A stretch of DNA of 64,000 nucleotides from Saprospira grandis str. Lewin (GCF_000250635.1 NC_016940.1:1096995-1160994), one strand, 5' to 3'. Positions 622-34,192 are shown, counted from the first letter of the stretch. Notes: a model not told the origin generated them from the letters alone. A program made the numbers and translations.

Positions 622-836
622 TTTTGGGGCGTTACTCCTTTCAGTCGTCGAACTGCAGACTAAAGTCTTTGTTGTCGCTGCGGCCTACAGCCTTGCGGCG
701 CTACGTTTACTCCCTACGGTCGTCGAACTGGCGCCCCTATAGGGGCTGGTTGTCGCAGCTCGCAGGTCTGCTCGGCCCTGCGGCGGCTTTGCCGCCTTGG
801 TCTGGCCTGACGGCCACTGCTGCACATCGCTAGGCC
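622..836 (+). repeat. GC-rich modular intergenic repeat, copy 1; long variant, forward orientation (ends ...ctgctgcacatcgctaggcc)
   Basis: Shares tttttggggc... head, ...gctcgcaggtctgctcggccctgcgg..., ggtctggcc and the terminal cacatcgctaggcc with the other copies. It carries an extra ggtcgtcgaactg module that is also present in the copies at 9695..9913 (reverse) and 56932..57192. Confidence 0.85.
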
Positions 837-871
837 AGCCCGCCCCTATTGGGGTTTTTTCACTCCAAAAA

Positions 872-2146
872 ATGCTCAATCCACCAATTATGCCTAAAAG
901 TCGACTCTTAGAAGCGCCAAAAAGCTTGGCTGGCGCCCAATACATTCAGCTCAACAGCTCCAAAAGCATCAGCAATCGCTTATTGATTATTCAGGCGATT
1001 ATGGGCCAATTGGCGCCCCCAAAAAGCTTATCTAGGGCCAAAGACAGCCAGAGCTTGGTCCGACTACTACAGCAAGAAGAAGAAGAAATACTAGATGCCG
1101 AAGATGCGGGGACCTGTTTTCGCTTTCTCACGGCCTACCTTTGTCTCAACAATAAAAAGCAAGTGCTCACGGGCTCGGCTCGGATGCTAGAGCGGCCCAT
1201 TGGCCCCTTGGTAGAAGCCCTGCGTAGCTTGGGCGCCCAAATTGACTACTTGGGCCAAGAGGGCTATCCCCCCTTGCAGATTGGGGCCTCTAGTTGGAAG
1301 GACACAGAAGAAATGCCTAGCTTGCGTATAGATGGCGGCATCAGCAGCCAGTATATTTCGGCCCTCTTGCTTATTGCCCCTGCCCTACCGCAGGGACTAA
1401 AACTGCAACTAGAGGGAGAGATCATTTCTATGCCCTACATTCAGATGACCTTAGGCCTAATGGAGCAGTTTGGCATCGACTATCTACAGGCGGGAAAAAG
1501 CTTTTTAATTGAGCCCCAAAGCTACCAAGCGCCCCAAGAAGAATTTATTGTAGAAGGCGACTGGTCCGCCGCGGCCTACTACTATGCCTTAGTGGCCTTG
1601 GCCGAGCCTGGATTTAGCCTAAAGCTAGGGCAATTGCGGGCCAATTCCTTACAGGGAGATTCCGTCATTGCCGAGCTGATGCAAAACTTGGGGGTAGTCA
1701 GTACATTTTTGCCCGAGGGAGAACTAGAACTCAAAAAAACAGCCCAGCCGCTGCCTAAGGAACTGCGCTATGATTGTCGGCACTATCCCGATTTGGCCCA
1801 AACCCTAATGGCCATATCGGCGGGACTAGCTATTCCCTGCCAGCTTTTTGGTCTACAGAGTTTGCGCATCAAAGAGACCGACCGTTTGGCGGCCATGAAA
1901 AACGAACTAGAAAAGCTGGGGGCAAGGGTAGAAATTGGAGAAGACTGGATGCACATTAAGTCGGGAGTAAAAAGAGCGCAAAAAAAGCCCTTAATTAGTA
2001 GTTACAAAGACCATCGGATGCTCATGTCCTTGGCCCCCTTATCGCTTTTGCTTGGTCCATTAAAAATGGAGCAGCCCGAAGTTGTGGCCAAATCCTATCC
2101 CGATTTTTGGAGAGATTTGGGCCAATTGGGCTTTAAAATTGGCTAA
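872..2146 (+). CDS. aroA: 3-phosphoshikimate 1-carboxyvinyltransferase (EPSP synthase)
   Basis: About 425 aa with AroA-typical blocks (LTGSARMLERPIGPLVEALRSLGA, DGGISSQYISALLLIAPAL, DHRMLMSLAPL). The ORF-track start at 797 lies inside repeat copy 1, so the start is moved to the ATG at 872 (MLNPPIMPKS...). Confidence 0.85.
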   Translation: MLNPPIMPKSRLLEAPKSLAGAQYIQLNSSKSISNRLLIIQAIMGQLAPPKSLSRAKDSQSLVRLLQQEEEEILDAEDAGTCFRFLTAYLCLNNKKQVLTGSARMLERPIGPLVEALRSLGAQIDYLGQEGYPPLQIGASSWKDTEEMPSLRIDGGISSQYISALLLIAPALPQGLKLQLEGEIISMPYIQMTLGLMEQFGIDYLQAGKSFLIEPQSYQAPQEEFIVEGDWSAAAYYYALVALAEPGFSLKLGQLRANSLQGDSVIAELMQNLGVVSTFLPEGELELKKTAQPLPKELRYDCRHYPDLAQTLMAISAGLAIPCQLFGLQSLRIKETDRLAAMKNELEKLGARVEIGEDWMHIKSGVKRAQKKPLISSYKDHRMLMSLAPLSLLLGPLKMEQPEVVAKSYPDFWRDLGQLGFKIG

Positions 2147-9953: not shown

Positions 9954-10862
9954 CTATTGGCCAACTCCGCCAAAATCATCGTCAAAGGTATCTCCATTGC
10001 TGGGCTCATCTTGCTGTTCAAACTCTTGGCAGACCTCTGGTTTTTCGGCCAGCAGCCAGATGTCAATTCCGGCGCCCATACTGGCTCGAGAAGCGGCAGA
10101 AGGCGACTGTCGAACCACATAGGCATTCATAGTATCGATGATATTTGGGCCATAGCTCACCGTGCCCAGATAAAAGGCATTGCCCTTAATGATAAACTCG
10201 GCTTCTGAGAAGGTTTTGCAGCTCAGGTCGGGGACCAATTTTTTGCCGCTATCTTTTCCTTTATAGAGCTCTAGGTCTACCTTATCGCCTTGTTTGAGCT
10301 GATAAGGTTGCTTGGGTCGGCGTTCTCCCTTACTGGGGTCGGCCTCCTTAAAGATCAGGGTTTTATCTTTGGTATAAGCGGCGGCCACCGTATTTTCTCC
10401 GCCTCCATCTACATACTTCAGTTGGCCAATTTTTAGGCCGAGCGCCTTAAATTTCTTCTCGACAAAATTGAGCGGGCGGCCAATAATCTCATTATAATAA
10501 ATATTGACAGGGGGAGCGCTATTGGCGTTTACGGTCAGGTAGATGCTTCGGTTGGGCTTCACTCGGCTATTGGCCTCGGGGGATTGTTTGAGGATAATGC
10601 CAGGATTTCGTTTTGCGTTATAAATCGTATCGGTAACAACTAATCGGAGCTTTCGGCTTTTGAGTTGTCGCTCGGCATTTTTGACCGAAAGGCCCTTAAT
10701 ATCGGGTACTTCAATAGACTCATTATGGCGGGTGTAGGAGGGGAGAATGAGCCAAAAGAGCAGCACAAAGCTCAGCAGCGCAATGCCAATCATCATCCCC
10801 ATATTCTTGAGGAAGAGCTTAGAGCTTAGGAAATAGTATAAAAACTTAAAAAAAGATTTCAT
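9954..10862 (-). CDS. PASTA domain-containing membrane-anchored protein
   Basis: N-terminal TM segment followed by PASTA-like repeats (VPDIKGLSVKNAERQLKSRKLRLVV...; VPDLSCKTFSEAEFIIKGNAFYLGTV). Confidence 0.6.
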   Translation of the reverse strand: MKSFFKFLYYFLSSKLFLKNMGMMIGIALLSFVLLFWLILPSYTRHNESIEVPDIKGLSVKNAERQLKSRKLRLVVTDTIYNAKRNPGIILKQSPEANSRVKPNRSIYLTVNANSAPPVNIYYNEIIGRPLNFVEKKFKALGLKIGQLKYVDGGGENTVAAAYTKDKTLIFKEADPSKGERRPKQPYQLKQGDKVDLELYKGKDSGKKLVPDLSCKTFSEAEFIIKGNAFYLGTVSYGPNIIDTMNAYVVRQSPSAASRASMGAGIDIWLLAEKPEVCQEFEQQDEPSNGDTFDDDFGGVGQ

Positions 10863-16608: not shown

Positions 16609-16771
16609 TTTTTGGGGCCTGCGGGCCCCTTTTGCCTTGCTGCGCTGCGGCAAGGGCCCGCCGGGCTGTTGCGGGGCTCGCCGGGCTGTTGCGGGGCTCG
16701 CAGCGCTGCTCGGCCCTTCAGCGCTGCGCGCTTCGGTCTGGCCTGCGGCCACCCCTACACATCCCTAGGCC
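16609..16771 (+). repeat. GC-rich modular intergenic repeat, copy 6 (forward, with an internal 20-bp tandem duplication gccgggctgttgcggggctc x2)
   Basis: tttttggggcctgcgggcccc...gccgggctgttgcggggctcgccgggctgttgcggggctcgcagcgctgctcggcccttcagcgctgcgcgcttcggtctggcctgcggccacccctacacatccctaggcc. Confidence 0.85.
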
Positions 16772-16817
16772 GGGGCCATTTTTTTCAGGCTGCTCTTTAC
16801 TCCCCAACCCTTTGCCC

Positions 16818-18032
16818 ATGTTTTCACGCCTTTTTTCTGCTCCGCCCTCGGCCTTTTCGGCTGTTAGTACCTTGATTGTCAAAGTGACTTATCGCTGCAA
16901 TTTAGATTGTTTGTATTGCTATGAGAAAGTAAGCAAAACGGGCCAAGATATGTCTATTGAGCAGTTTAAAGAGCTGGTAGATTTGAGTTTGGGCCAAACT
17001 TCTTCTCCTCAACTCACTTTTCTTTTTCATGGGGGCGAGCCTACCCTCTTGCCCATTCCTTGGTATGAGGAGGGCCTAGATTATGCCTTGAGCCAGGCCA
17101 AAAAATGGGGAAAAACGGTTCATTTTGCCATGCAAAGCAATTTGGTCCGTCTAAAAGAGGAGTATATTCAGTTATTTCAGCGCTATAAGATAGCCTTGGG
17201 GGTGAGTTTGGACCAGCCCGTTTTCCTGCTAGACGACAGCCAGCGAGGAGGCGAGACCAAGGTCTTCAAGAACTTTAAACGCCTACAGGCCGCCAAGGTC
17301 AAAGCGGGGGTTTTGGCCACCATCAACAGCAGCAACTACCCCAACTTTTATACCCTTTGCGAATGGCTGTGGAGCGAGGCCAAGCAGCGCTCTTTTAAGG
17401 CCAATGTGGTCACGCCAGTGGGGGCTGCCCATGGGCAGCCCCCACTGCAGGCCGAGCAAATTTTTATGGCCCAAAAAGCCATTATTGATTATATGATAGC
17501 GACCCAAGGACAGGCACTCATAGAGAGTAATATTGCCTTAGAGTTGGGCCGTTATTTTGAGCCAGAGCAAGCGCAAAGCACCCTTTGCCATGAAAAAACC
17601 TGTGGGGCGGGCCGTTCGGCTTTGGGGATTACGCCAGAGGGGCATTTGTTGCCTTGTGGGCGCTTTGCTTGGAACGAGCCGGCTTACTATTTGGGCCATC
17701 TTTCTGAGCAGCGACAAGCCAGCCGAAAAGAAAAAAAGCAATTGGCCCAGAAAATTGCCGACTTTCATGCGCAAAAGCCAGAAAACTGGTACGATTGCGA
17801 AAGTTGTCCCGCCCAAAAAGTCTGCGGTTATGGCTGTCAGGCCTTCATTCTCCGCTCCGAGGAGCAAGCCAATTTGGACTGCCTGCCGACCAAAATGCGC
17901 TTTGCCTATTATCAGGAAAAAGAAGTGGCTTTAAAGGCTGTTTTTGACAACATCCAAAAGCGGCAGGCGGGTCCCAGTCGCCAATTTCGGATTAAGGACC
18001 AAAACGGGCAATGGAAAAGCTACAAACTTTAG
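16818..18032 (+). CDS. Radical SAM enzyme with a C-terminal SPASM domain (AnSME / peptide-maturase-like)
   Basis: CNLDCLYC (CX3CX2C) near the N-terminus and the SPASM motif CESCPAQKVCGYGC near the C-terminus. The ORF-track start at 16632 lies in repeat copy 6, so the start is moved to the ATG at 16818 (MFSRLF...). Confidence 0.7.
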   Translation: MFSRLFSAPPSAFSAVSTLIVKVTYRCNLDCLYCYEKVSKTGQDMSIEQFKELVDLSLGQTSSPQLTFLFHGGEPTLLPIPWYEEGLDYALSQAKKWGKTVHFAMQSNLVRLKEEYIQLFQRYKIALGVSLDQPVFLLDDSQRGGETKVFKNFKRLQAAKVKAGVLATINSSNYPNFYTLCEWLWSEAKQRSFKANVVTPVGAAHGQPPLQAEQIFMAQKAIIDYMIATQGQALIESNIALELGRYFEPEQAQSTLCHEKTCGAGRSALGITPEGHLLPCGRFAWNEPAYYLGHLSEQRQASRKEKKQLAQKIADFHAQKPENWYDCESCPAQKVCGYGCQAFILRSEEQANLDCLPTKMRFAYYQEKEVALKAVFDNIQKRQAGPSRQFRIKDQNGQWKSYKL

Positions 18033-18218: not shown

Positions 18219-18956
18219 TTAAGCTAGGGCTAGCAAGCGTTGCTCCACAGATTTGAGCAGGCCAAAAAGCGACTGAAAATTGTCTAGATAATAATAGACC
18301 GACTGCATTTCGTGCTTATGAAAATGGTGTTTCAAAACGCTTTCGAGCAGAAAGGGGCGGAACTCGCAATTTTGGCCTTTATGGACCTGAATACTTTCGC
18401 CGAAAGAGGACAAAATGCCTGCCCCATAAATGGCTTGGCCCTGAGCATTTTTGCAAACGCCAAACTCGATAGTAAACCAATATAGGCGTTCGAGAGCGGC
18501 CACGGCATCGGGCAGATGAGCGACTTGCAAGCCGATGCGGCCGAACTCCTGCATAAAGTCGGCATATTGGGCATTAAAGAGGAGGGGAATATGGCCAAAA
18601 GTATCGTGAAACATATCGGGTTCCTCCAGATAATCGAGTTCCTCCATTTTTCGGAGCCAGCAAGAAGAGGGGAATCGGCGTTGGGCCAGTAGGGCAAAAA
18701 ACTCCTCTACGGGAATCAGGCCGGGCACCAGCTCGATACTAAAATTCTGTTCTTTTTGGAGCAGGGGCGAAAGCTCTTTAAAATTGGGAATAGCTTGGCC
18801 ATTTAGGGCCGATTGGGCGGCCTTTAGGGCGGGCCAGAGTTCGGGCACCGCCTTATCTTCTAGGTTTTCCCATTGGCGTTTGAACAAAAGTTGCCAAACG
18901 GCTTGATCTTCGGCTTGATAAGCCTCATAATTTTGCTGCATCATGATTTTGCGCAT
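18219..18956 (-). CDS. phhA: Phenylalanine 4-monooxygenase (biopterin-dependent aromatic amino-acid hydroxylase)
   Basis: EEPDMFHDTFGHIPLL iron-binding signature and ~245 aa length. Confidence 0.8.
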   Translation of the reverse strand: MRKIMMQQNYEAYQAEDQAVWQLLFKRQWENLEDKAVPELWPALKAAQSALNGQAIPNFKELSPLLQKEQNFSIELVPGLIPVEEFFALLAQRRFPSSCWLRKMEELDYLEEPDMFHDTFGHIPLLFNAQYADFMQEFGRIGLQVAHLPDAVAALERLYWFTIEFGVCKNAQGQAIYGAGILSSFGESIQVHKGQNCEFRPFLLESVLKHHFHKHEMQSVYYYLDNFQSLFGLLKSVEQRLLALA

Positions 18957-23868: not shown

Positions 23869-25002
23869 CTACTCTAGCTTTTCTAAGCCCCCAAATTCTG
23901 CCTGCCCCTGGGCCAACATGGCTTTGCGAGCCGATAATTCTACTTTCTCCGATTTTTGCAAACAAGAGAAGTCCGCCGCCAAAATGGCTTGGAGCTCCGC
24001 CAAAACTTCTTCCCGACTCAACCAGTAGTGCTCCGTCAAAAAGATGTCGTCTAATAGCTTTTGCTTAAAGGGATCTAAGGCTTGATCTAAGTTTAAATCG
24101 CTCTGATAAAGCGCATCCAGCCGCTCAAAAAGGGCCAAATGCTGCCCCCGACCCAATAGGCTGTATTCCCGATTTTCTTCCAACAAAGCTATGCTCCAAC
24201 TCCCCAGAGAATAACCCAAACTGTCTAAAGGATAGGCCGCATAAAAAAGCTCCACCAATTGGTCATCTAAGCTGTCTGCCGTCTGCTCGGCCAACTTCCC
24301 CCAAAATCTGTAATCCCGATACAGCTGATATTCGGTTTTGGGGGCTGGCAAATAGACCAAATAACCCGGCAGTACATGCTGCAACCAAAAGAAATTGGCC
24401 AAACTATCTGCCGAACTTAAGGCCAAGGCCTCATTCACCCGCTCCTCCAAGGCCAATTCTAGGTTTTCGCCCTTTTTATACAACATCCGAAAAGCAGGCA
24501 AACTCTGAATCTCTGCTGCTTCTCGCTGATATTGCTTGACCTCCGCAGCCAACTCGTCGCCAAAAAAGAAGTATAAACGCCGATCTAACCAAAGCCGCTG
24601 CAAATCCTCCGAGGGCAGGCTGTCAAAGCTCAAACTCCCCCCAAATAACCAGCCCTTATAGCCATCTGCCGCCTCTACTTCTAGCCAGGGCTCCCTATGG
24701 TCCACCCCCTCCAAACGGATCAAACTTTCGGCCTTGCTCATCCGCCCCAAATACCGAAAACTACTGCCTTTGTGGTAGCTCCGCAAACTTTTTGCCCCCC
24801 AATCTGGCGCCGCTTTCAACTCCCCTTCTCGACTGCTCAGGCTCAGGCTGGCTCCTTGCCCATCTGTCGATATGTATAGGCTGCTGTCTGCGGTTTTGGG
24901 CGCTTTTTCTGGCCCTTCTAGCAGCGGTTCCTGGCCTTGCTCTTCGGTACAAGAAAACAATAACAAACAGACAATCAAGGATATAGCGGAATATATTTTC
25001 AT
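23869..25002 (-). CDS. Hypothetical lipoprotein
   Basis: MKIYSAISLIVCLLLFSCTEEQ lipobox-like signal. Otherwise no recognised family. Confidence 0.5.
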   Translation of the reverse strand: MKIYSAISLIVCLLLFSCTEEQGQEPLLEGPEKAPKTADSSLYISTDGQGASLSLSSREGELKAAPDWGAKSLRSYHKGSSFRYLGRMSKAESLIRLEGVDHREPWLEVEAADGYKGWLFGGSLSFDSLPSEDLQRLWLDRRLYFFFGDELAAEVKQYQREAAEIQSLPAFRMLYKKGENLELALEERVNEALALSSADSLANFFWLQHVLPGYLVYLPAPKTEYQLYRDYRFWGKLAEQTADSLDDQLVELFYAAYPLDSLGYSLGSWSIALLEENREYSLLGRGQHLALFERLDALYQSDLNLDQALDPFKQKLLDDIFLTEHYWLSREEVLAELQAILAADFSCLQKSEKVELSARKAMLAQGQAEFGGLEKLE

Positions 25003-25363: not shown

Positions 25364-28072
25364 CTAATCCTCCTGAGAAGAAGACAACAAACTGTTTTGC
25401 GCTTGTCGCTCTTGGCCAAAAGTCAGAATCTGCCGAATAAAATCGAAGGGCTGATAACCATTGATGGCCGTTTGGTGGAAGATGCAGGTGGCGGGCGTCA
25501 TGCCGGGCAAAGAATTGACCTCAATGACCAGGGTTTCGGCTCGGCCATCGGCATAAATGCGGACAAAAGCATCGATTCGGGCATAGCCCGTAACCCCCAA
25601 AATGCGGGCCGCCTGCTCTAAATCGGCCTTAATTTGGGCCGCCAAGGGCGCATATTCAAGTTCGCCAACAGCCAAGCGAGCAGGGGTAATATTTTGTCCC
25701 TCTCCCGCCAAAAACTTCTCTTCCAACGATAAAATCTCGCCAGAAGCCAAGGTTTCAGAAGGCTCAAAAACCTCATAGCGGATGCTTCCATCGGCCTCAT
25801 GATGACAAAGTAGGCCCACGGTCACCTCCAGAAAATGCAGGGCATCTTTTTGCTCCACCAACTGCTCTAAAAGGGCATATTGCTTTTGGGGAAACTCCTC
25901 TTTGGGCAAAATGGCTAGGCGCTCTTGGGCAATTTTTGGCAAAATATCCTCTTCACGGAAAAGGGCCGCCAAAAAGGCCTCCAATTCCGCCTCATTTTTG
26001 ATCTTTTTCACGGCAGAGCTACAGCCATCATCTACTGGCTTGGCAATCAGGGGCCAGCCTAGTTTTTCGCCTGCTTGCTGCAGACTTTGTTCAGGCTGGG
26101 CCAAATAATCGCTTTTGCTCAAAAGGATTTGCTCGGTCACGGGCAGGCCAGCGGCTTTCAGCTTTTGGAGACTTTGGTACTTATCAATCGTCAAGGCAGC
26201 AGAATCGGCCTCCGAACCATTAAAAGCGATGCCTCTTTTGGCCAACTCTCTTTGGAGCGCGCCATCCTCGCCGGGGCGGCCATGCAAAGCGATAAAGGCC
26301 AGACGGGTCTCCTCGCTTAATTCATCAAAAGAGAGCGAGCGGGGATCTAGGCGGCTACTTCGGCCAGAAAACTGATTAGCAATATGAGCCGTTTCTTGGC
26401 GAATCTTTTGGATAATGGGATGTACCTTATAATTTAATAATTTATCGCGAATATCGTCGGCATTATCCTTTAGCAAAAGGTTGATTGGTAATTCGTAGAG
26501 CTGTTGGTCCTCCGCCTTGCCCGTCAGGAAAACGGGAAAAGGCAGATAATCTGCAGAGCTGGCCAACTTCTCATAAATATTGCGGCCACTTTCTACCGAA
26601 ATATGGCGTTCGGAAGAATAACCGCCTAGAATAACCGCCACCTTTTGGAGTTCGGCAACCTCTCCTTCTAGGCGTTGCATCTCGCTTTCCAATCGGGCCA
26701 ATAATTGGCCATAATTATTGGGGCGCAGGCATTTTCGGCTGCGGGCCAAAAGCGAGCGATGAATAATAAAACTGAGAAAATGCGAGGGATTGAGGCCAAT
26801 TTCGGCCGCTTGATGGAAAAAGAAAGAAGAAGGCAGCATGCCCGAAGTCGTATTCGGATCATTGAGAATAATGCGGCCATCGGCTTGAATAAAACCATCG
26901 ATTCGGGCATAAACATCAAACTCCAAAAAGCGGAACAGCCGTTCGCACTCTTGGCGGATCGCTTGGATTTGGGCCTCGGGCAAATCAATAGGGGTTAACT
27001 TACGCGAGAGTCCAGCCAAATACTTAGAGCGATAATCAAAAAGCTCTTTGCCCTTGATAATTTCGGTGGGGGGCAAAGCAATGGCTTGGCCATCCTCATC
27101 TTGAATCACGACACAGGAAAACTCTCGGCCCTCAATAAAGCCCTCTAATAAAACGCTTTCCTCTCGGTATTGGCTTTGGAGTCGGAGCTTGGGGCTATGT
27201 CCCTGCCCCAATTCCTTATCGAGTAGGGCCAATAATTGCTCGGGATGATAGAGCAACTGTTTATCTTTTTTTGGGCCTTCCACCTCTAGCGGGAAGCCGA
27301 GGCCAGAGCGAATATCGAGCAATTTCCGCATCCATTGGATCTGCTCCTCTCGGCTCATTTGCTGCCAGTCTTCGGCGCTAATTTCGAGGCCAAAAAAGGC
27401 ATTTTCTAGGGCATCGAGAAGGTCTTCAGCCTGCTCGACAATACGCACACCGATAGAAGAACCTTGATTGGAAGGGCGGACCACCAAGGGGAAACCCATC
27501 TCTTTTTTGAGCTGCTCCAGATTGGGCAATTCGCCGCTCCAGTCTTTGGCCCAAATTTGTTGGATGGGAGGACTTTCAAAGCCGCCTGCCTGCATCATTT
27601 TCTTCTGGAAACTTTTGTCCATGCCCAGGCTACTCGCTCGGATGCCAGAGCCACTATAGGGAATCCCCAAAGCTTCTAACATCCCTTGAAGTTGACCATC
27701 TTCGCCCCATTCGCCATGCAGACTCAGAAAAGCAAAATCGATCAATTCGGGCAATTCGCTAAAGCTAATTGGGCGGCCAATTTGGGCCAGCAACTCCTTA
27801 GAGGCCTGCTTAGAAAGGCCTAGGCTTTCCACATAAATCTGAAAATGGTGTGGGCTAGGCGGCAGTGCCTCTACTGGGGGATAAAAATCTCGGATACTGC
27901 CCTTATAGAGATACTCCCAATCGAGTAGGCAGAGTTGGCCAAAACTATCCACAAAAATAGGGATGGGCCGAAAAAGTTGTTTATTTAAATTATCGTAGAC
28001 GGTCCGGCCACCTGCAAAGGCGATTTCGCGTTCTCGAGAGGGGCCAGCCAGAAATATTCCAATGTTCAACAT
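25364..28072 (-). CDS. Tandem double D-alanine--D-alanine ligase-like (ATP-grasp) protein, 902 aa
   Basis: Two complete Ddl-like modules. Module 1: MLNIGIFLAGPSREREIAFAGGRTVYDNL..., FLSLHGEWGEDGQLQGMLEALGIPYSGSG, FPLVVRPSNQGSSIGV, EFSCVVIQDEDGQAIALPPTEI, DYRSKYL. Module 2: VAVILGGYSSERHISVESGRNIYEKL, IALHGRPGEDGALQRELAKRGIAFNGSEADSAALTIDKYQ, WPLIAKPVDDGCSSAV, EVNSLPGMTPATCIFHQ. Confidence 0.7.
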   Translation of the reverse strand: MLNIGIFLAGPSREREIAFAGGRTVYDNLNKQLFRPIPIFVDSFGQLCLLDWEYLYKGSIRDFYPPVEALPPSPHHFQIYVESLGLSKQASKELLAQIGRPISFSELPELIDFAFLSLHGEWGEDGQLQGMLEALGIPYSGSGIRASSLGMDKSFQKKMMQAGGFESPPIQQIWAKDWSGELPNLEQLKKEMGFPLVVRPSNQGSSIGVRIVEQAEDLLDALENAFFGLEISAEDWQQMSREEQIQWMRKLLDIRSGLGFPLEVEGPKKDKQLLYHPEQLLALLDKELGQGHSPKLRLQSQYREESVLLEGFIEGREFSCVVIQDEDGQAIALPPTEIIKGKELFDYRSKYLAGLSRKLTPIDLPEAQIQAIRQECERLFRFLEFDVYARIDGFIQADGRIILNDPNTTSGMLPSSFFFHQAAEIGLNPSHFLSFIIHRSLLARSRKCLRPNNYGQLLARLESEMQRLEGEVAELQKVAVILGGYSSERHISVESGRNIYEKLASSADYLPFPVFLTGKAEDQQLYELPINLLLKDNADDIRDKLLNYKVHPIIQKIRQETAHIANQFSGRSSRLDPRSLSFDELSEETRLAFIALHGRPGEDGALQRELAKRGIAFNGSEADSAALTIDKYQSLQKLKAAGLPVTEQILLSKSDYLAQPEQSLQQAGEKLGWPLIAKPVDDGCSSAVKKIKNEAELEAFLAALFREEDILPKIAQERLAILPKEEFPQKQYALLEQLVEQKDALHFLEVTVGLLCHHEADGSIRYEVFEPSETLASGEILSLEEKFLAGEGQNITPARLAVGELEYAPLAAQIKADLEQAARILGVTGYARIDAFVRIYADGRAETLVIEVNSLPGMTPATCIFHQTAINGYQPFDFIRQILTFGQERQAQNSLLSSSQED

Positions 28073-28171: not shown

Positions 28172-28208
28172 CCCTAAAATAAAAGGCCCCGACAAAATTG
28201 TCGGGGCC
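28172..28208 (-). terminator. Rho-independent terminator after the Big_2 lipoprotein gene
   Basis: Minus strand: ggccccgaca-aaat-tgtcggggcc 10-bp stem followed by ttttatttt. Confidence 0.7.
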
Positions 28209-28235
28209 TAGAACAAGCAGTTAGTTAGCTTAATA

Positions 28236-32827: not shown

Positions 32828-34192
32828 TTAGTCCCTATGAAAAGGAAGCAACCAACTGGGACTACTAAAAAGCGCTGCTTTTTCTTGGGCCAAATTGACC
32901 TGAGGATCTACCAAGCGCTGGCTAGGGCGGCCATTGAGGCTGACCTGAGCGTCTAGATAAACCTCTGGGTTTTGATAGCCTTCTTCTGTTTGGTAATAAT
33001 TGGCCAAATAATGGGCAAACTGCAAAAGCATATCAGGTTGATAGGCCATCATCAGCTCCTGTTTTTCATTGAGATGGTCCAGATTATTGACCCAGCTCAT
33101 TTTGCCCGTTTGGCCATCGACTACCTTAAACTGAGCATAGCCCCTTTTCTCGACCAGCATGACCATCCAAGAAAAGCGGAAGCCCTGTTCCTGCCAAAGG
33201 ACATTGCCCGCATAGAGATGATGTCGCAGCGGAAAAAGCGCCTGAAAAAGCAGAAAAGACAGCAAAAAATAGCGTTGAAAAGGGGGAAGAACGAGCTCTA
33301 GTTTTAATTTAGACAAAGTCAAATTAAAAATTTGAGCAAAGGTAGCAATTATTTTTTCATGAAAATGGCTAGAGAAAAAAATTGTGGTGCAGGCCATCAT
33401 CAGGTAGGGAAAAATGCCGATATAGAAGAGGGCGGCGGTGGCTAGGTGGAAGCAAATGACAAAAAAGTAGGCATATTTTCGGCTTTTGGACCAAAGGAGA
33501 AAAAAGCCAATACTGAGATCGAAGGCGGCGCCAAAACAGGCAAAAATGGGGGGCAGCCAGCTCTTGCAGAGGAGAGGGCCAAAGATTGGAAAATCGGATA
33601 GTTGGCCCAGCCAGATGCGCAGAGGTTGGGCTAAAACGAGCCAATCGCTTTGCAACTTGGCCAAGCCGGCAAAAAAATAGACCAGCACAAAAAGCAGTCG
33701 GGGCGTCCATATATATAGAGCGGGAACCTTGACCAAAGTCACCGAGATCGGATAATCTAGGGAAAAAGCGCGATGAGCGGGCAGGATCCAAAGCAGCAGG
33801 GCTAGCAAAGCGACCAGGTAGTAATGATTGAGATAATGCGTCAGGTCCAAAAGCTCTACATAAGTAAAGCAAGCAAAAAAAATCCCGGCAGAAAATTTAT
33901 ATTTATAGCCTAGGGCGATACCGAGGCCAGCGGCAGCCATCAAAAAAAAGCAGGCATAAAGGGCTGTTGCGGGCAATTCGGGCAGCCAATGCGTACCCCA
34001 AAGGCGGAAGGCAAACTGGGGTTGGATATAGAACTTATCGACCCAGCCGAGCAGCAGCATTCGCAGAGAGAGCCAGCAAGCGATCAGGCCAAAAATGATT
34101 CTGAGGCTAATGAGGGGGGCGATACTTTTGGGTTGGTCTAAAGCGAGCATAAGGATGAATTTTATGGGCGCAAAGGTAGACAATAGGCGCAA
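32828..34192 (-). CDS. Polytopic membrane protein, HTTM-domain-like (vitamin-K-dependent gamma-carboxylase-related)
   Basis: Multiple predicted TM helices over ~280 aa (…YIWTPRLLFVLVYFFAGLAKLQSDW…) followed by a soluble C-terminal domain. The assignment is from recalled family features only. Confidence 0.45.
   Translation of the reverse strand: MRLLSTFAPIKFILMLALDQPKSIAPLISLRIIFGLIACWLSLRMLLLGWVDKFYIQPQFAFRLWGTHWLPELPATALYACFFLMAAAGLGIALGYKYKFSAGIFFACFTYVELLDLTHYLNHYYLVALLALLLWILPAHRAFSLDYPISVTLVKVPALYIWTPRLLFVLVYFFAGLAKLQSDWLVLAQPLRIWLGQLSDFPIFGPLLCKSWLPPIFACFGAAFDLSIGFFLLWSKSRKYAYFFVICFHLATAALFYIGIFPYLMMACTTIFFSSHFHEKIIATFAQIFNLTLSKLKLELVLPPFQRYFLLSFLLFQALFPLRHHLYAGNVLWQEQGFRFSWMVMLVEKRGYAQFKVVDGQTGKMSWVNNLDHLNEKQELMMAYQPDMLLQFAHYLANYYQTEEGYQNPEVYLDAQVSLNGRPSQRLVDPQVNLAQEKAALFSSPSWLLPFHRD

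Follow-up and report, generated by a model that had tools for sequence, protein, structure and literature searches.

Gene and module organization

The window, by which we mean the whole 64,000-nucleotide stretch of the Saprospira grandis str. Lewin genome that was analysed (NC_016940.1:1096995-1160994), carries an open reading frame on its minus strand that encodes 902 residues from an ATG start and has its stop codon within the coordinates given in Table 1. The product is deposited as AFC23834.1 / WP_015691482.1 / UniProt H6L3V2, and the database annotation of AFC23834.1 is already that of a D-Ala–D-Ala ligase. A Pfam search with the 902-aa protein recovered PF01820 (Dala_Dala_lig_N) in two stretches (E 1.3e-38) and PF07478 (Dala_Dala_lig_C) in four (E 2.8e-56). 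The open reading frame and the doubled domains bear out an earlier note on this DNA, which had described a 902-aa protein with two Ddl-like ATP-grasp modules and had named an HMM search as the check. Since the double Ddl has no transmembrane segment, it is expected to be cytoplasmic. A terminator-like hairpin is situated between the start of ddl and the upstream gene for a Big_2 lipoprotein, which suggests that the double ddl is transcribed on its own.

Table 1. Features of the double ddl gene and of related elements in the window
Feature	Coordinates	Strand	Description
Whole gene	25364..28072	-	tandem A-B D-Ala-D-Ala-ligase-like protein, 902 aa
Module A, A-type Ddl	26732..28072	-	about residues 1-447
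Insertion A1	27782..27949	-	about residues 42-97, after strand beta-2 and before HG motif
Insertion A2	27167..27388	-	about residues 229-302, central ATP-grasp domain
Inter-module linker	26651..26731	-	about residues 448-474; predicted long helical connector
Module B, B-type Ddl	25367..26650	-	about residues 475-902
Insertion B1	26348..26524	-	about residues 517-575; position same as A1
Insertion B2	25880..25966	-	about residues 703-731, 'REEDILPKIAQERLAILPKEEFPQK'; position same as A2, shorter
Terminator-like hairpin	28184..28209	-	11 bp stem, 8 GC, then T-run; consensus scan only
TM + PASTA-domain protein	9954..10862	-	302 aa, AFC23817.1

The two halves of the protein (residues 1-470 and 471-902) align with each other over their whole length with 28% identity (E 6e-33), and in this alignment both insertions fall at matching positions. 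Each half is enlarged by its insertions, as had been proposed, with about 430-470 aa per module compared with 306-365 aa in canonical Ddl. Insertion A1 contains a conserved 'YKG(T/S)IRDFYPP' and is not found where module A is compact, as in plants and in classes iii and iv, while A2 contains a conserved 'DIR(S/T)G(L/I)GFP' and is confidently modelled as a helix plus strands. Insertion B1 contains the invariant 'LLKDNADDIRDK'. In the structure model the linker region consists of helices 429-447 and 454-474.

Predicted structure and family assignment

The AF2 model of the full protein has a pLDDT of 86 and a pTM of 0.87, and the latter value implies that modules A and B are fixed relative to each other in the predicted structure. 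In a fold search the best PDB matches were all Ddl enzymes, with TM scores to target of 0.75-0.90. Superposition of the modelled modules on solved Ddl structures gave TM scores of up to 0.90, with an rmsd of 2.6 Å to E. coli DdlB (4c5a). The three-domain Ddl ATP-grasp fold is thus shown by the model in both modules. The protein has the same fold and catalytic set as canonical Ddl (E. coli DdlB 2DLN/4C5A, DdlA and Bacteroides Ddl), but differs from it in having two diverged modules per chain, whereas canonical Ddl is a homodimer of single modules.

The large subunit of carbamoyl-phosphate synthetase (CPS) holds two ATP-grasp modules in one chain, and CPS and cyanophycin synthetase both resemble the double Ddl in carrying several ATP-dependent ligase sites per polypeptide. 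This analogy had been drawn in the earlier note and is not upheld by structure. Comparison with CPS (1bxr_A) gave a TMq of 0.46, a TMt of 0.39 and an rmsd of 15.8 Å, by which the fold search rules out a CPS- or cyanophycin-like arrangement, and PF02786 matches the double Ddl weakly, over 40 residues. The two-module arrangement finds no structural correspondence there, and each module is predicted to be a self-contained two-substrate Ddl.

The NCBIfam Ddl model has a cut-off of 243 bits, which the whole protein passes with 354 and which neither module reaches alone (A 216 bits, B 146 bits). The database name of Ddl therefore clears the curated threshold only through the sum of two modules that are each below it. 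The best scores on the Van models for D-Ala-D-Lac and D-Ala-D-Ser ligases are 146 bits for module A and 88 bits for module B, compared with cut-offs of 495-775; on the D-Ala-D-Lac models module B reaches 73 bits (cut-off 550).

Active-site residues of the two modules

Conserved sites are numbered below according to E. coli DdlB and were followed through a family set of 121 homologues. Residues E15, R16, H63, G64, E68, K97, S151, E180, E187, K215, R255, D257, N272, G276 and M277 are invariant in both modules in 121/121 sequences. In the S. grandis protein itself, module A retains E14, H119, K153, S205, E310, E317, K350, Y351, R390, D392, N407, G411 and S416, and module B retains E488, H597, K631, K678, E736, E749, K786, R832, D834, E851, N853 and G857. 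Each module additionally has invariant changes of its own, namely K144→R199, E148→Q203, E270→D405, P275→S410 and L282→F417 in module A, which are specific to the family, and S150→C684, G153→A687, Y216→F787, S281→T862 and L282→C863 in module B.

When the ATP, Mg and catalytic set (K97, K144, E180, E187, K215, R255, D257, E270, N272 and G276) is considered, module B is identical throughout and module A is identical but for K144R and E270D, a pattern that is constant in 121/121 sequences. The ATP-binding lysine K144 is replaced by Arg within 'VVRPS', and E270 is a Mg ligand; both substitutions are conservative but unusual. The earlier note had credited each half with the full Ddl motif set. The motifs that it quoted are present with the exception of the C-terminal EhNxhPG(M/F)T in module A, which instead reads L-N-D-P-N-T-T-S-G-M-L owing to E270→D and P275→S; module B has the canonical EVNSLPGMT. 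The Glu15-Ser150-Tyr216 triad together with Ser281, which is the hallmark of dipeptide-forming Ddl, is present in module A (E14, S205, Y351, S416) and incomplete in module B (E488, C684, F787, T862), where the Ser150/Tyr216 pair that marks dipeptide-specific Ddls is missing.

Constraint on the two modules is equal, with a mean pairwise identity of 0.635 for A and 0.645 for B and with 125 and 119 invariant columns, respectively. With catalytic residues conserved in 121/121 sequences in both halves, the proposal of two complete, non-degenerate modules stands. That one half might be a decaying duplicate is excluded by this equal conservation, by the completeness of the catalytic residues and by the contrast with relatives that have genuinely decayed. 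In some lineages the same syntenic slot is occupied by catalytically dead double-Ddl–PASTA fusions, one of them in GCA_975849725.1, and these pseudo-enzyme relatives retain 0-11 of 16 catalytic residues. Genomes with a dead fusion must have another Ddl, so the position of the locus alone is no proof of a sole housekeeping role. Because the gene is maintained in lineages where catalysis has been lost, the Ddl fold would also have a non-catalytic use.

Two ancient paralogue clades

As judged from sequence comparison, the N-terminal module A and the C-terminal module B are two ancient paralogue clades. In a neighbor-joining tree over all architecture classes, B separates from the rest with 100% bootstrap support and A with 90%, and this tree and module-specific HMM scores both place an A-type module first and a B-type module second in the double Ddl. 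The modules are 28% identical to each other and 31-32% identical to DdlB. A recent internal duplication is excluded, as the halves are as distant mutually as they are from E. coli DdlB, and it is also contradicted by the separate A and B clades common to plants and other phyla. The S. grandis protein, classes i, iii and iv and the plant proteins have in common an A signature (E270D, P275S and L282F with Ser150 and Tyr216 kept) and a B signature (S150C, Y216F and S281T). Within this scheme the S. grandis protein, in which both modules have insertions and K144 is Arg, is of class i and lies outside the subclade of the plant enzymes, which is class iii with a compact module A.

The A→B tandem is carried by at least 571 bacterial species genomes. 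The earlier note had allowed that its reading would fail if fused Ddl-like proteins were a well-known housekeeping form in this clade, and this is largely the case, as the fused form is the standard of the clade. Gene fission has occurred secondarily, in which case both halves are kept and are found in the same samples as unlinked genes.

Comparison with plant plastid DDLs

We compared the S. grandis protein with the plant DDLs of Arabidopsis (At3g08840), Physcomitrium (PpDDL, BAE45860) and rice (BAF22630). The plant and moss plastid enzymes have the same tandem order of an A-type followed by a B-type module. Plant module 1 carries the signature of module A (D-x-N..SGM, with K-Y and Ser150 kept) and plant module 2 that of module B (DGCS, EEKF and E-x-N..PGMTP(S/A)T), where EEKF was taken from database sequence and DGCS and E-x-N..PGMTPST from a machine-read alignment in PMC12681378. 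Plant module 1 nests within the A clade (bootstrap 100%), and the plant sequences group with class iii (bootstrap 100%). Unlike the S. grandis protein, the plant DDLs are of class iii, have a compact module A that is devoid of A1 and A2, contain 'EKFQGG', keep Lys144 in module A and possess a transit peptide. Among bacteria they are closest to Patescibacteria, Chlamydiota and other MAGs, not to Saprospiraceae, and module A of the S. grandis protein is only 31% identical to plant module 1 over shared core columns. Among the top 150 representatives no plant proteins were recognisable; the homologues P0228 and P0251, with N-terminal extensions, look bacterial.

Moss has a single DDL gene, and its Ddl knock-outs lose D-Ala dimerisation (PMC9954125; PMC12681378); the moss peptidoglycan precursor terminates in D-Ala-D-Ala (PMC9434261). 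Arabidopsis lines that have only the C-terminal DDL module exhibit no phenotype, and there is debate over what the Arabidopsis gene and its individual halves do (PMC9954125).

Gene neighbourhood and the PASTA protein

PASTA domains have an established role in peptidoglycan binding. In most related genomes a gene for a TM-PASTA protein lies directly downstream of the double ddl or is fused to it, and in S. grandis the orthologue of this gene encodes AFC23817.1. Here the gene is displaced from the double ddl by ~15 kb and the pairing is broken. The UniProt name of AFC23817.1, 'Serine/threonine protein kinase', is unsupported since its 302 aa comprise a TM segment and PASTA alone. Across 80 related loci the TM-PASTA gene is adjacent to the double ddl at 43, fused to it at 6 and nearby at 4, while rhodanese homologues are found at 20/80 loci and rluD homologues at 8/80. 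The PASTA, rluD and rhodanese genes near the double ddl are homologous to those of the canonical Bacteroides ddl operon, which has the order PASTA-rluD-ddl-x-rhodanese.

The double ddl is, as had been noted, not beside mur or fts genes within the window. This absence is uninformative because the canonical Bacteroides ddl also lies outside the mur/fts cluster. The conclusion that had been drawn from it, that the protein is probably not the housekeeping Ddl, is countered by the PASTA/rluD/rhodanese setting common with the canonical Bacteroides ddl, by the breadth of the species distribution and by the kinship with plant DDL. Neither the 64-kb window nor any of the 80 related loci contains another Ddl-like open reading frame, and likewise no biosynthetic or secondary-metabolite cluster and no vanH- or vanX-like neighbours were found around the double ddl in the window or at the 80 loci. 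For class iii/iv tandems, a position in the dcw cluster was not found at loci L004, L005, L012, L097 and L098. Only scattered links were observed at class iii/iv loci, namely an adjoining alanine racemase, an NlpC/P60 hydrolase and, at a distance of 8-10 kb, a Mur ligase and an Ala symporter.

Proposed function of the double Ddl

We propose, with a probability of roughly 0.65, that the S. grandis double Ddl is a D-Ala-D-Ala ligase for peptidoglycan precursors that is built as a single-chain heterodimer and serves as the housekeeping Ddl of its clade. Each module would act as a normal Ddl, in which ATP phosphorylates the carboxylate of D-Ala1 and the amine of D-Ala2 attacks the acyl-phosphate, with the dipeptide then passing to MurF. 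We infer D-Ala-D-Ala formation and the supply of MurF from plant genetics and from synteny with canonical ddl. Modules A and B may pack against each other within the chain as the two subunits do in the canonical Ddl homodimer, a proposal for which the model pTM of 0.87 is the sole support. The likeliest site of D-Ala-D-Ala formation is module A, given its intact Glu-Ser-Tyr triad and Ser281. Module B has all ATP and Mg ligands but Cys, Phe, Thr and Cys in a remodelled acceptor pocket; it is probably also catalytic and might have an altered acceptor preference or altered kinetics. The enzyme would be functionally coupled to the TM-PASTA protein, which spans the membrane once with its PASTA domains in the periplasm and may tether D-Ala-D-Ala synthesis or regulate it by the state of the wall.

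The remodelled pocket of module B raises the alternative that the protein is bifunctional, with module A making D-Ala-D-Ala and module B ligating D-Ala to D-lactate, D-serine or another D-amino or D-hydroxy acid, so that the cell would have stem peptides with two kinds of ends, or else a second metabolite that contains D-Ala. All 121 homologues have Y216→F, S150→C, S281→T and L282→C in module B, whose Phe and Cys also persist in plants and in classes i, iii and iv, and B forms a clade of its own. A single Phe/Tyr switch is known to govern depsipeptide versus dipeptide activity in Ddl of lactic acid bacteria and in DdlB Y216F (PMC5996685), and PDB entry 1iow, labelled 'Y216F', was among our fold-search matches. 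Module B has Phe at this position in common with the Phe-type D-Ala-D-lactate ligases (Leuconostoc LmDdl2 1EHI and Lactobacillus Ddl) and with DdlB Y216F (1IOW). Unlike these ligases it has the extra Ser150→Cys and shows no specific sequence affinity to them, staying at or below 88 bits on the curated D-Ala-D-Lac and D-Ala-D-Ser models, and it is hosted by Gram-negative bacteria and plants, where the known precursor ends in D-Ala-D-Ala. The absence of vanH- and vanX-like neighbours also argues against a second product, as does the accumulation of the ordinary D-Ala-D-Ala pentapeptide precursor in moss, whose DDL shares the B-type module (PMC9434261). We therefore regard a bifunctional enzyme as unlikely. 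Also improbable, in our view, is a pseudo-heterodimer in which only one module is catalytic, while its partner would bind nucleotide or product and take the place of the second subunit in a structural or allosteric role. Both modules do have non-canonical residues at near-universal positions (K144R and E270D in A, S150C and Y216F in B), lineages of the same architecture are maintained after loss of catalysis, and Arabidopsis lines with the C-terminal module only are without phenotype (PMC9954125). The ATP, Mg and transition-state residues of both modules are nevertheless invariant in 121 sequences and across phyla under equal constraint, and the S. grandis protein is unlike the genuine pseudo-enzymes with their 0-11 of 16 residues.

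The idea in the earlier note that the two modules could extend one product by successive ligations to a tripeptide, depsipeptide chain or polymer, which would place the gene in secondary metabolism and not in cell-wall synthesis, appears very improbable. In its favour are the two ATP-grasp sites in one chain and the conserved insertions. No biosynthetic cluster accompanies the gene in the window or at the 80 loci, the neighbourhood is one common with housekeeping ddl, the two-module arrangement of CPS is structurally dissimilar, the halves also exist as unlinked genes, and loss of the plant orthologue abolishes the D-Ala dimerisation needed for peptidoglycan (PMC9954125). Of that idea successive ligation is unsupported, and a depsipeptide survives as a minority possibility for module B because of the Phe at the Tyr216 position. 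More speculatively, the heterotandem may be more than two joined subunits of a homodimer, in that module B may be a second enzyme or a sensor for a different ligand, with the A-B pair wired to a periplasmic PASTA sensor so as to couple the supply of D-Ala-D-Ala (or D-Ala-D-X) to the state of the wall. We consider this possible but doubtful; the observations cited for it are the separate B clade, the invariance of Cys150, Phe216 and Thr281 in B from Bacteroidota to plant plastids, the adjacency or fusion to PASTA and the existence of catalytically dead double-Ddl–PASTA derivatives. Such a device, if real, would be a new one and would explain why plants keep both halves.

Significance and related systems

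Textbooks describe Ddl, a classic antibiotic target (D-cycloserine) that is central to vancomycin resistance, as a homodimer of single-module subunits. In a large bacterial group and in plant plastids the enzyme is instead a conserved heterotandem, whose two ancient paralogues differ in their active-site signatures. The gene is coupled to, and at times fused with, that of a PASTA membrane protein, and pseudo-enzyme versions are also found. Another specificity or a regulatory role for module B would amount to new biochemistry of the cell wall; should the two halves do no more than make D-Ala-D-Ala, the protein is an interesting but ordinary architectural variant. The role of the two halves lends itself to study in a simple system, either in S. 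grandis, which is culturable, or in E. coli lacking ddl as an expression host.

In the literature searched we found nothing on a bacterial tandem Ddl or on a link between Ddl and PASTA. The Chlamydia MurC-Ddl and other Mur chimeras likewise fuse a peptidoglycan-precursor enzyme to a ligase in one polypeptide, which has been proposed to help stability or co-assembly (PMC10214165). MurC-Ddl, however, joins Ddl to a different enzyme, and a Ddl-Ddl heterotandem is absent from the chimera types of that survey (PMC10214165). With regard to the membrane partner, the closest parallel is with PASTA sensors such as PBP2x and the kinases PknB, PrkC and StkP, which are likewise single-pass proteins with extracytoplasmic PASTA domains coupled to a cytoplasmic wall function. 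The difference is that the cytoplasmic partner here is a Ddl, encoded by an adjacent gene or present as a fusion, and not a kinase or transpeptidase.

Domain organization and fold of the double Ddl

The open reading frame lies exactly where the earlier note had placed it, starts with ATG and encodes a protein deposited as AFC23834.1 / WP_015691482.1 / UniProt H6L3V2 from Saprospira grandis str. Lewin. A Pfam search bore out its reading as two Ddl domains, with Dala_Dala_lig_N found twice (E 1.3e-38) and Dala_Dala_lig_C in four stretches (E 2.8e-56), and the best matches in a PDB sequence search were D-Ala-D-Ala ligases without exception. Residues 1-470 and 471-902 align end to end at 28% identity (E 6e-33), with two large insertions at matching positions in both halves, which we refer to as module A (N-terminal) and module B (C-terminal).

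Coordinates of genes in the window and at related loci
Feature	Sequence	Coordinates	Strand	Length (aa)	Domain match
EPSP_synthase-family protein	window	797..2146	+	449	EPSP_synthase, E 2.3e-68
PASTA gene	window	9954..10862	-	302	PF03793, E 6e-23
Radical-SAM/SPASM protein	window	16632..18032	+	466	
Biopterin-dependent aromatic amino-acid hydroxylase homologue	window	18219..18956	-	245	
Predicted lipoprotein	window	23869..25002	-	377	
Double ddl	window	25364..28072	-	902	
HTTM protein	window	32828..34192	-	454	HTTM, E 3.7e-67; vitamin-K-dependent gamma-carboxylase lumenal domain, E 1.9e-51
Compact A-B tandem (P0189)	L004	10001-12265		754	
Dead PASTA fusion	L095	1511-4858			
Dead PASTA fusion	L096	8001-11675			

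An AlphaFold2 model of the protein made with 57 homologues was confident (pLDDT 86.2, pTM 0.87), and solved Ddl structures superpose on each module with a TM to target of up to 0.90 (rmsd 2.6 Å for E. coli DdlB). In the fold search against the PDB no solved chain matched the two-module arrangement. Carbamoyl-phosphate synthetase differs in that its chain does not match this layout (TMq just 0.46, rmsd 15.8 Å). Public databases already carry the protein as 'D-alanine--D-alanine ligase (family protein)'. Against the NCBIfam Ddl model, which has a 'subfamily' cut-off of 243 bits, the whole protein scores 354 bits, module A alone 216 and module B alone 146; the automatic name 'D-alanine--D-alanine ligase' passes only because two sub-threshold module matches are summed. 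Neither module approaches the score of the Van-type ligase models.

Active sites of the two modules

Residues of E. coli DdlB, whose sequence we checked against 2DLN/1IOV, were located in both modules of the window protein and of 120 full-length homologues. Catalytic residue sets are complete in both modules, with E15, R16, H63, G64, E68, K97, S151, E180, E187, K215, R255, D257, N272, G276 and M277 kept in 121/121 sequences. Each module also carries invariant substitutions of its own, given here as DdlB position and window-protein position. Module A has K144->R199, E148->Q203, E270->D405, P275->S410 and L282->F417 and retains Ser150 (S205), Tyr216 (Y351) and Ser281 (S416), while module B has S150->C684, G153->A687, Y216->F787, S281->T862 and L282->C863 and retains Lys144 and Glu270. 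The earlier note had credited each half with the full Ddl motif set. This holds for module B, which has the E-x-N-x-x-P-G-M-T motif that it shares with canonical Ddl, but not for module A, which has LNDPNTTSGML instead. Mean pairwise identity within the family is 0.635 vs 0.645 for the two modules, and invariant columns number 125/464 vs 119/420. Constraint on the two modules is equal within the family, and neither half is in decay.

An old fusion of two paralogues

The top 120 matches in a word-indexed search were all full-length homologues of ~900 aa (55-95% identity), with Saprospira, Aureispira, Phaeodactylibacter, and Saprospiraceae and Bacteroidota MAGs as the named organisms. Searched exhaustively with HMMER, 1.84 billion cluster representatives yielded 595 at E<=1e-30, and the best 150 of these were classed by module A and module B profiles. 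Class i, the type of the window protein (~860-930 aa), has insertions in both modules; class ii is class i with a C-terminal extension of ~340-360 aa that carries PASTA domains and a TM helix; class iii (~790-830 aa) combines a compact module A with an insertion-bearing module B; and class iv (~700-754 aa) has two compact modules. Stand-alone A-type (~410-430 aa) and B-type (~390-400 aa) proteins were also found. In every class the first module is marked by an A signature (D-x-N..SGM plus a retained K-Y) and the second by a B signature (DGCS, EKF, E-x-N..PG[ML]TP[AS]T).

In a neighbour-joining tree of 51 modules (345 core columns, Kimura-corrected distances, few canonical outgroups) the B modules form one clade (bootstrap 100%) and the A modules another (90%), with E. 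coli DdlB and Bacteroides Ddl outside both and beside A. The internal branching of the A clade is mirrored in the B clade. Hence the fusion is old, and A and B represent separate paralogues; over the core columns, the two modules of the window protein share 28% identity with each other and 31-32% with DdlB. The stand-alone A-type and B-type proteins are nested inside class i (bootstrap 91% and 92%), and their genes (A-type, P0221 and L006-L008; B-type, P0247 and L009-L011) occur on different contigs of shared samples (JGI 3300055001 and the SRR2852027x series). They therefore point to a secondary fission with both halves retained, which argues that both are needed. The stand-alone A-type gene stands between an S41 peptidase gene and mnmA, and an alanine racemase gene is ~4 kb off.

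A compact A-B tandem without insertions (P0189) is encoded on a 1.1-Mb contig, L004, which has many ankyrin and WD40 repeat genes, and a Mur ligase and a Na+/alanine symporter are encoded 8-10 kb upstream of it. The organism is possibly chlamydia-like. MurC-Ddl fusions are the known form in such organisms.

Relationship to plant DDL

That plant DDL is a tandem has already been published. Mur genes of moss include one DDL (PMC12681378), and moss Ddl knock-outs lose D-Ala dimerisation and form macrochloroplasts (PMC9954125). In moss the precursor is an ordinary pentapeptide ending in D-Ala-D-Ala, and FCB-group homologues were reported as the closest to PpDdl (PMC9434261). We reconstructed an Arabidopsis stretch from a noisy, machine-read DDL alignment (supplement, PMC12681378), which has obvious OCR duplications and underlies some of the evidence on plant module 2; used as a query, the stretch recovered genuine plant sequences, the top match being 99% identical. 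Plant module 1 has the A-type motifs VVVKPARAGSSIGV, RRKYLPT, ARIDGW and TDINLISGMEQNSFLFQQA. The B-type motif LSLEEKFQGGTGINLTPPP of plant module 2 is present in a real database sequence, and DGCSTGVARL and IIEANTVPGMTPST come from the machine-read alignment. Plant module 1 clusters with class iii A modules (bootstrap 100%). The motifs and this grouping thus place the window protein, as a bacterial member, in one superfamily with plant DDL. The plant protein is of the same kind, with an A-type module 1 and a B-type module 2, although the window protein lies outside the plant subclade.

The nearest bacterial relatives of plant module 1 in the sequence search (44-47% identity; among them P0315, P0320, P0330, P0352, P0384 and P0386) were from Peregrinibacteria, Gracilibacteria, Nomurabacteria, other Patescibacteria, Chlamydiota, Thermoanaerobaculia, Alphaproteobacteria, Verrucomicrobia MAGs and others, and cyanobacteria were not among them. 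These non-cyanobacterial relatives are relevant to the debate over where plastid peptidoglycan genes came from.

Genomic context and coupling to PASTA proteins

GTDB species genomes were scanned with two module-A motifs and at least 571 matched; the best 80 loci are nearly all from Saprospiraceae, Lewinellaceae, Chitinophagales or unclassified Bacteroidota MAGs, MAG labels being the submitters' own. Among these 80, a single-pass PASTA membrane-protein gene is directly downstream on the same strand at 43, is fused in frame to the double Ddl at 6 (1233-1261 aa, one TM helix near residues 982-1013) and lies 0.7-4 kb downstream at 4. Seven loci were too short to judge, and single-sequence phmmer detected no PASTA gene in 20, which may include divergent homologues. 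Rhodanese homologues were found downstream at 20/80 loci and RluD-type pseudouridine synthase homologues at 8/80. The canonical ddl of Bacteroides (325 aa) has the gene order PASTA - rluD - ddl - 381-aa gene - rhodanese, and the double-ddl neighbours are homologous to the Bacteroides PASTA, RluD and rhodanese proteins. So the double gene of these relatives has the neighbourhood of a housekeeping ddl.

The S. grandis PASTA gene is ~15 kb away from the double ddl. Its product combines a PASTA domain with a single N-terminal TM helix and matches the Bacteroides PASTA protein (E 1.2e-22); the gene is the orthologue both of the PASTA gene adjacent or fused to double ddl elsewhere and of that in the Bacteroides PASTA-rluD-ddl operon. 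UniProt names the product 'Serine/threonine protein kinase', for which its domain content gives no support. The neighbours of the double ddl in the window (a Big_2 lipoprotein, a TonB-dependent receptor, an HTTM/VKGC homologue, a peroxiredoxin and TraB/GumN) are unrelated to it, and a terminator-like hairpin lies between it and the upstream gene. There is no second Ddl in the 64-kb window, the rest of which is core chromosome. Directly downstream, where relatives have the PASTA gene, stands the predicted lipoprotein gene, whose product has no Pfam match and a signal-peptide-like N-terminus ending in 'LFSC'.

At least 12 PASTA-fused representatives (P0163, P0171, P0172, P0174-P0176, P0178, P0187, P0196, P0202, P0218 and P0253; 1013-1236 aa) are without most catalytic residues, keeping 0-11 and 1-10 of 16 key positions per module and often having the omega-loop K-Y deleted; intact fusions and the window protein keep 15-16/16. 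By their residue losses these double-Ddl, TM and PASTA fusions look like pseudo-enzymes that persist as the cytoplasmic part of a membrane protein with PASTA domains. Another Ddl must be encoded in their genomes, and the double-Ddl fold is evidently put to a non-catalytic use as well. Two of them (at L095 and L096) occupy the syntenic slot of intact genes, between a divergent upstream MatE gene and a rhodanese gene. Locus position is therefore supportive of a Ddl role but not conclusive.

Proposed function

We propose as the best-supported reading, with a probability of about 0.65, that the window protein is the S. grandis D-Ala-D-Ala ligase in the form of a single-chain heterodimer. Its fold, its full sets of catalytic residues, its place in the family, and the shared neighbourhood and link to plant DDL are shown by the analyses above, and the mechanism is proposed from them. 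Each module would run the standard acyl-phosphate mechanism, and the two would pack like the canonical homodimer, the sole support for which is the model's pTM of 0.87. Module A, with its Glu-Ser-Tyr triad, would form D-Ala-D-Ala, and module B would also be catalytic with an altered acceptor preference or altered kinetics. More speculatively, the PASTA pairing hints at a protein that senses the wall from the periplasmic side and would tether or regulate precursor synthesis.

Module B has all ATP and Mg ligands and an acceptor pocket of Cys/Phe/Thr/Cys. Its Phe is at the Tyr216-equivalent position that switches dipeptide vs depsipeptide synthesis (PMC5996685), as would suit a bifunctional enzyme whose module B uses a different acceptor, but the moss precursor data and the absence of Van ligase affinity count against this reading, and we consider it unlikely. 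It is likewise doubtful that the protein is a pseudo-heterodimer with one working site only; the complete residue sets in both modules and the equal constraint on the two speak against it. The successive-ligation or polymer model of the earlier note is highly improbable. The single-chain D-Ala-D-Ala ligase would have an ordinary role, yet its two-site design is unexplained, deeply conserved and directly testable.

A survey of Mur chimeras published in 2023 includes MurC-Ddl and no Ddl-Ddl. In the searchable literature, outside of which many subscription papers lie, we found no description of a bacterial tandem Ddl, of the division into A and B with fixed differences in the active site, of Ddl-PASTA coupling, including in Gram-negative Bacteroidota, or of pseudo-enzyme Ddl derivatives.

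Other genes in the window

The EPSP_synthase-family protein is either AroA or MurA, as this family spans AroA and the peptidoglycan enzyme MurA. The radical-SAM/SPASM protein gene adjoins that of the hydroxylase homologue. The HTTM protein, a bacterial homologue of animal gamma-glutamyl carboxylase, is encoded ~5 kb from the ddl gene.
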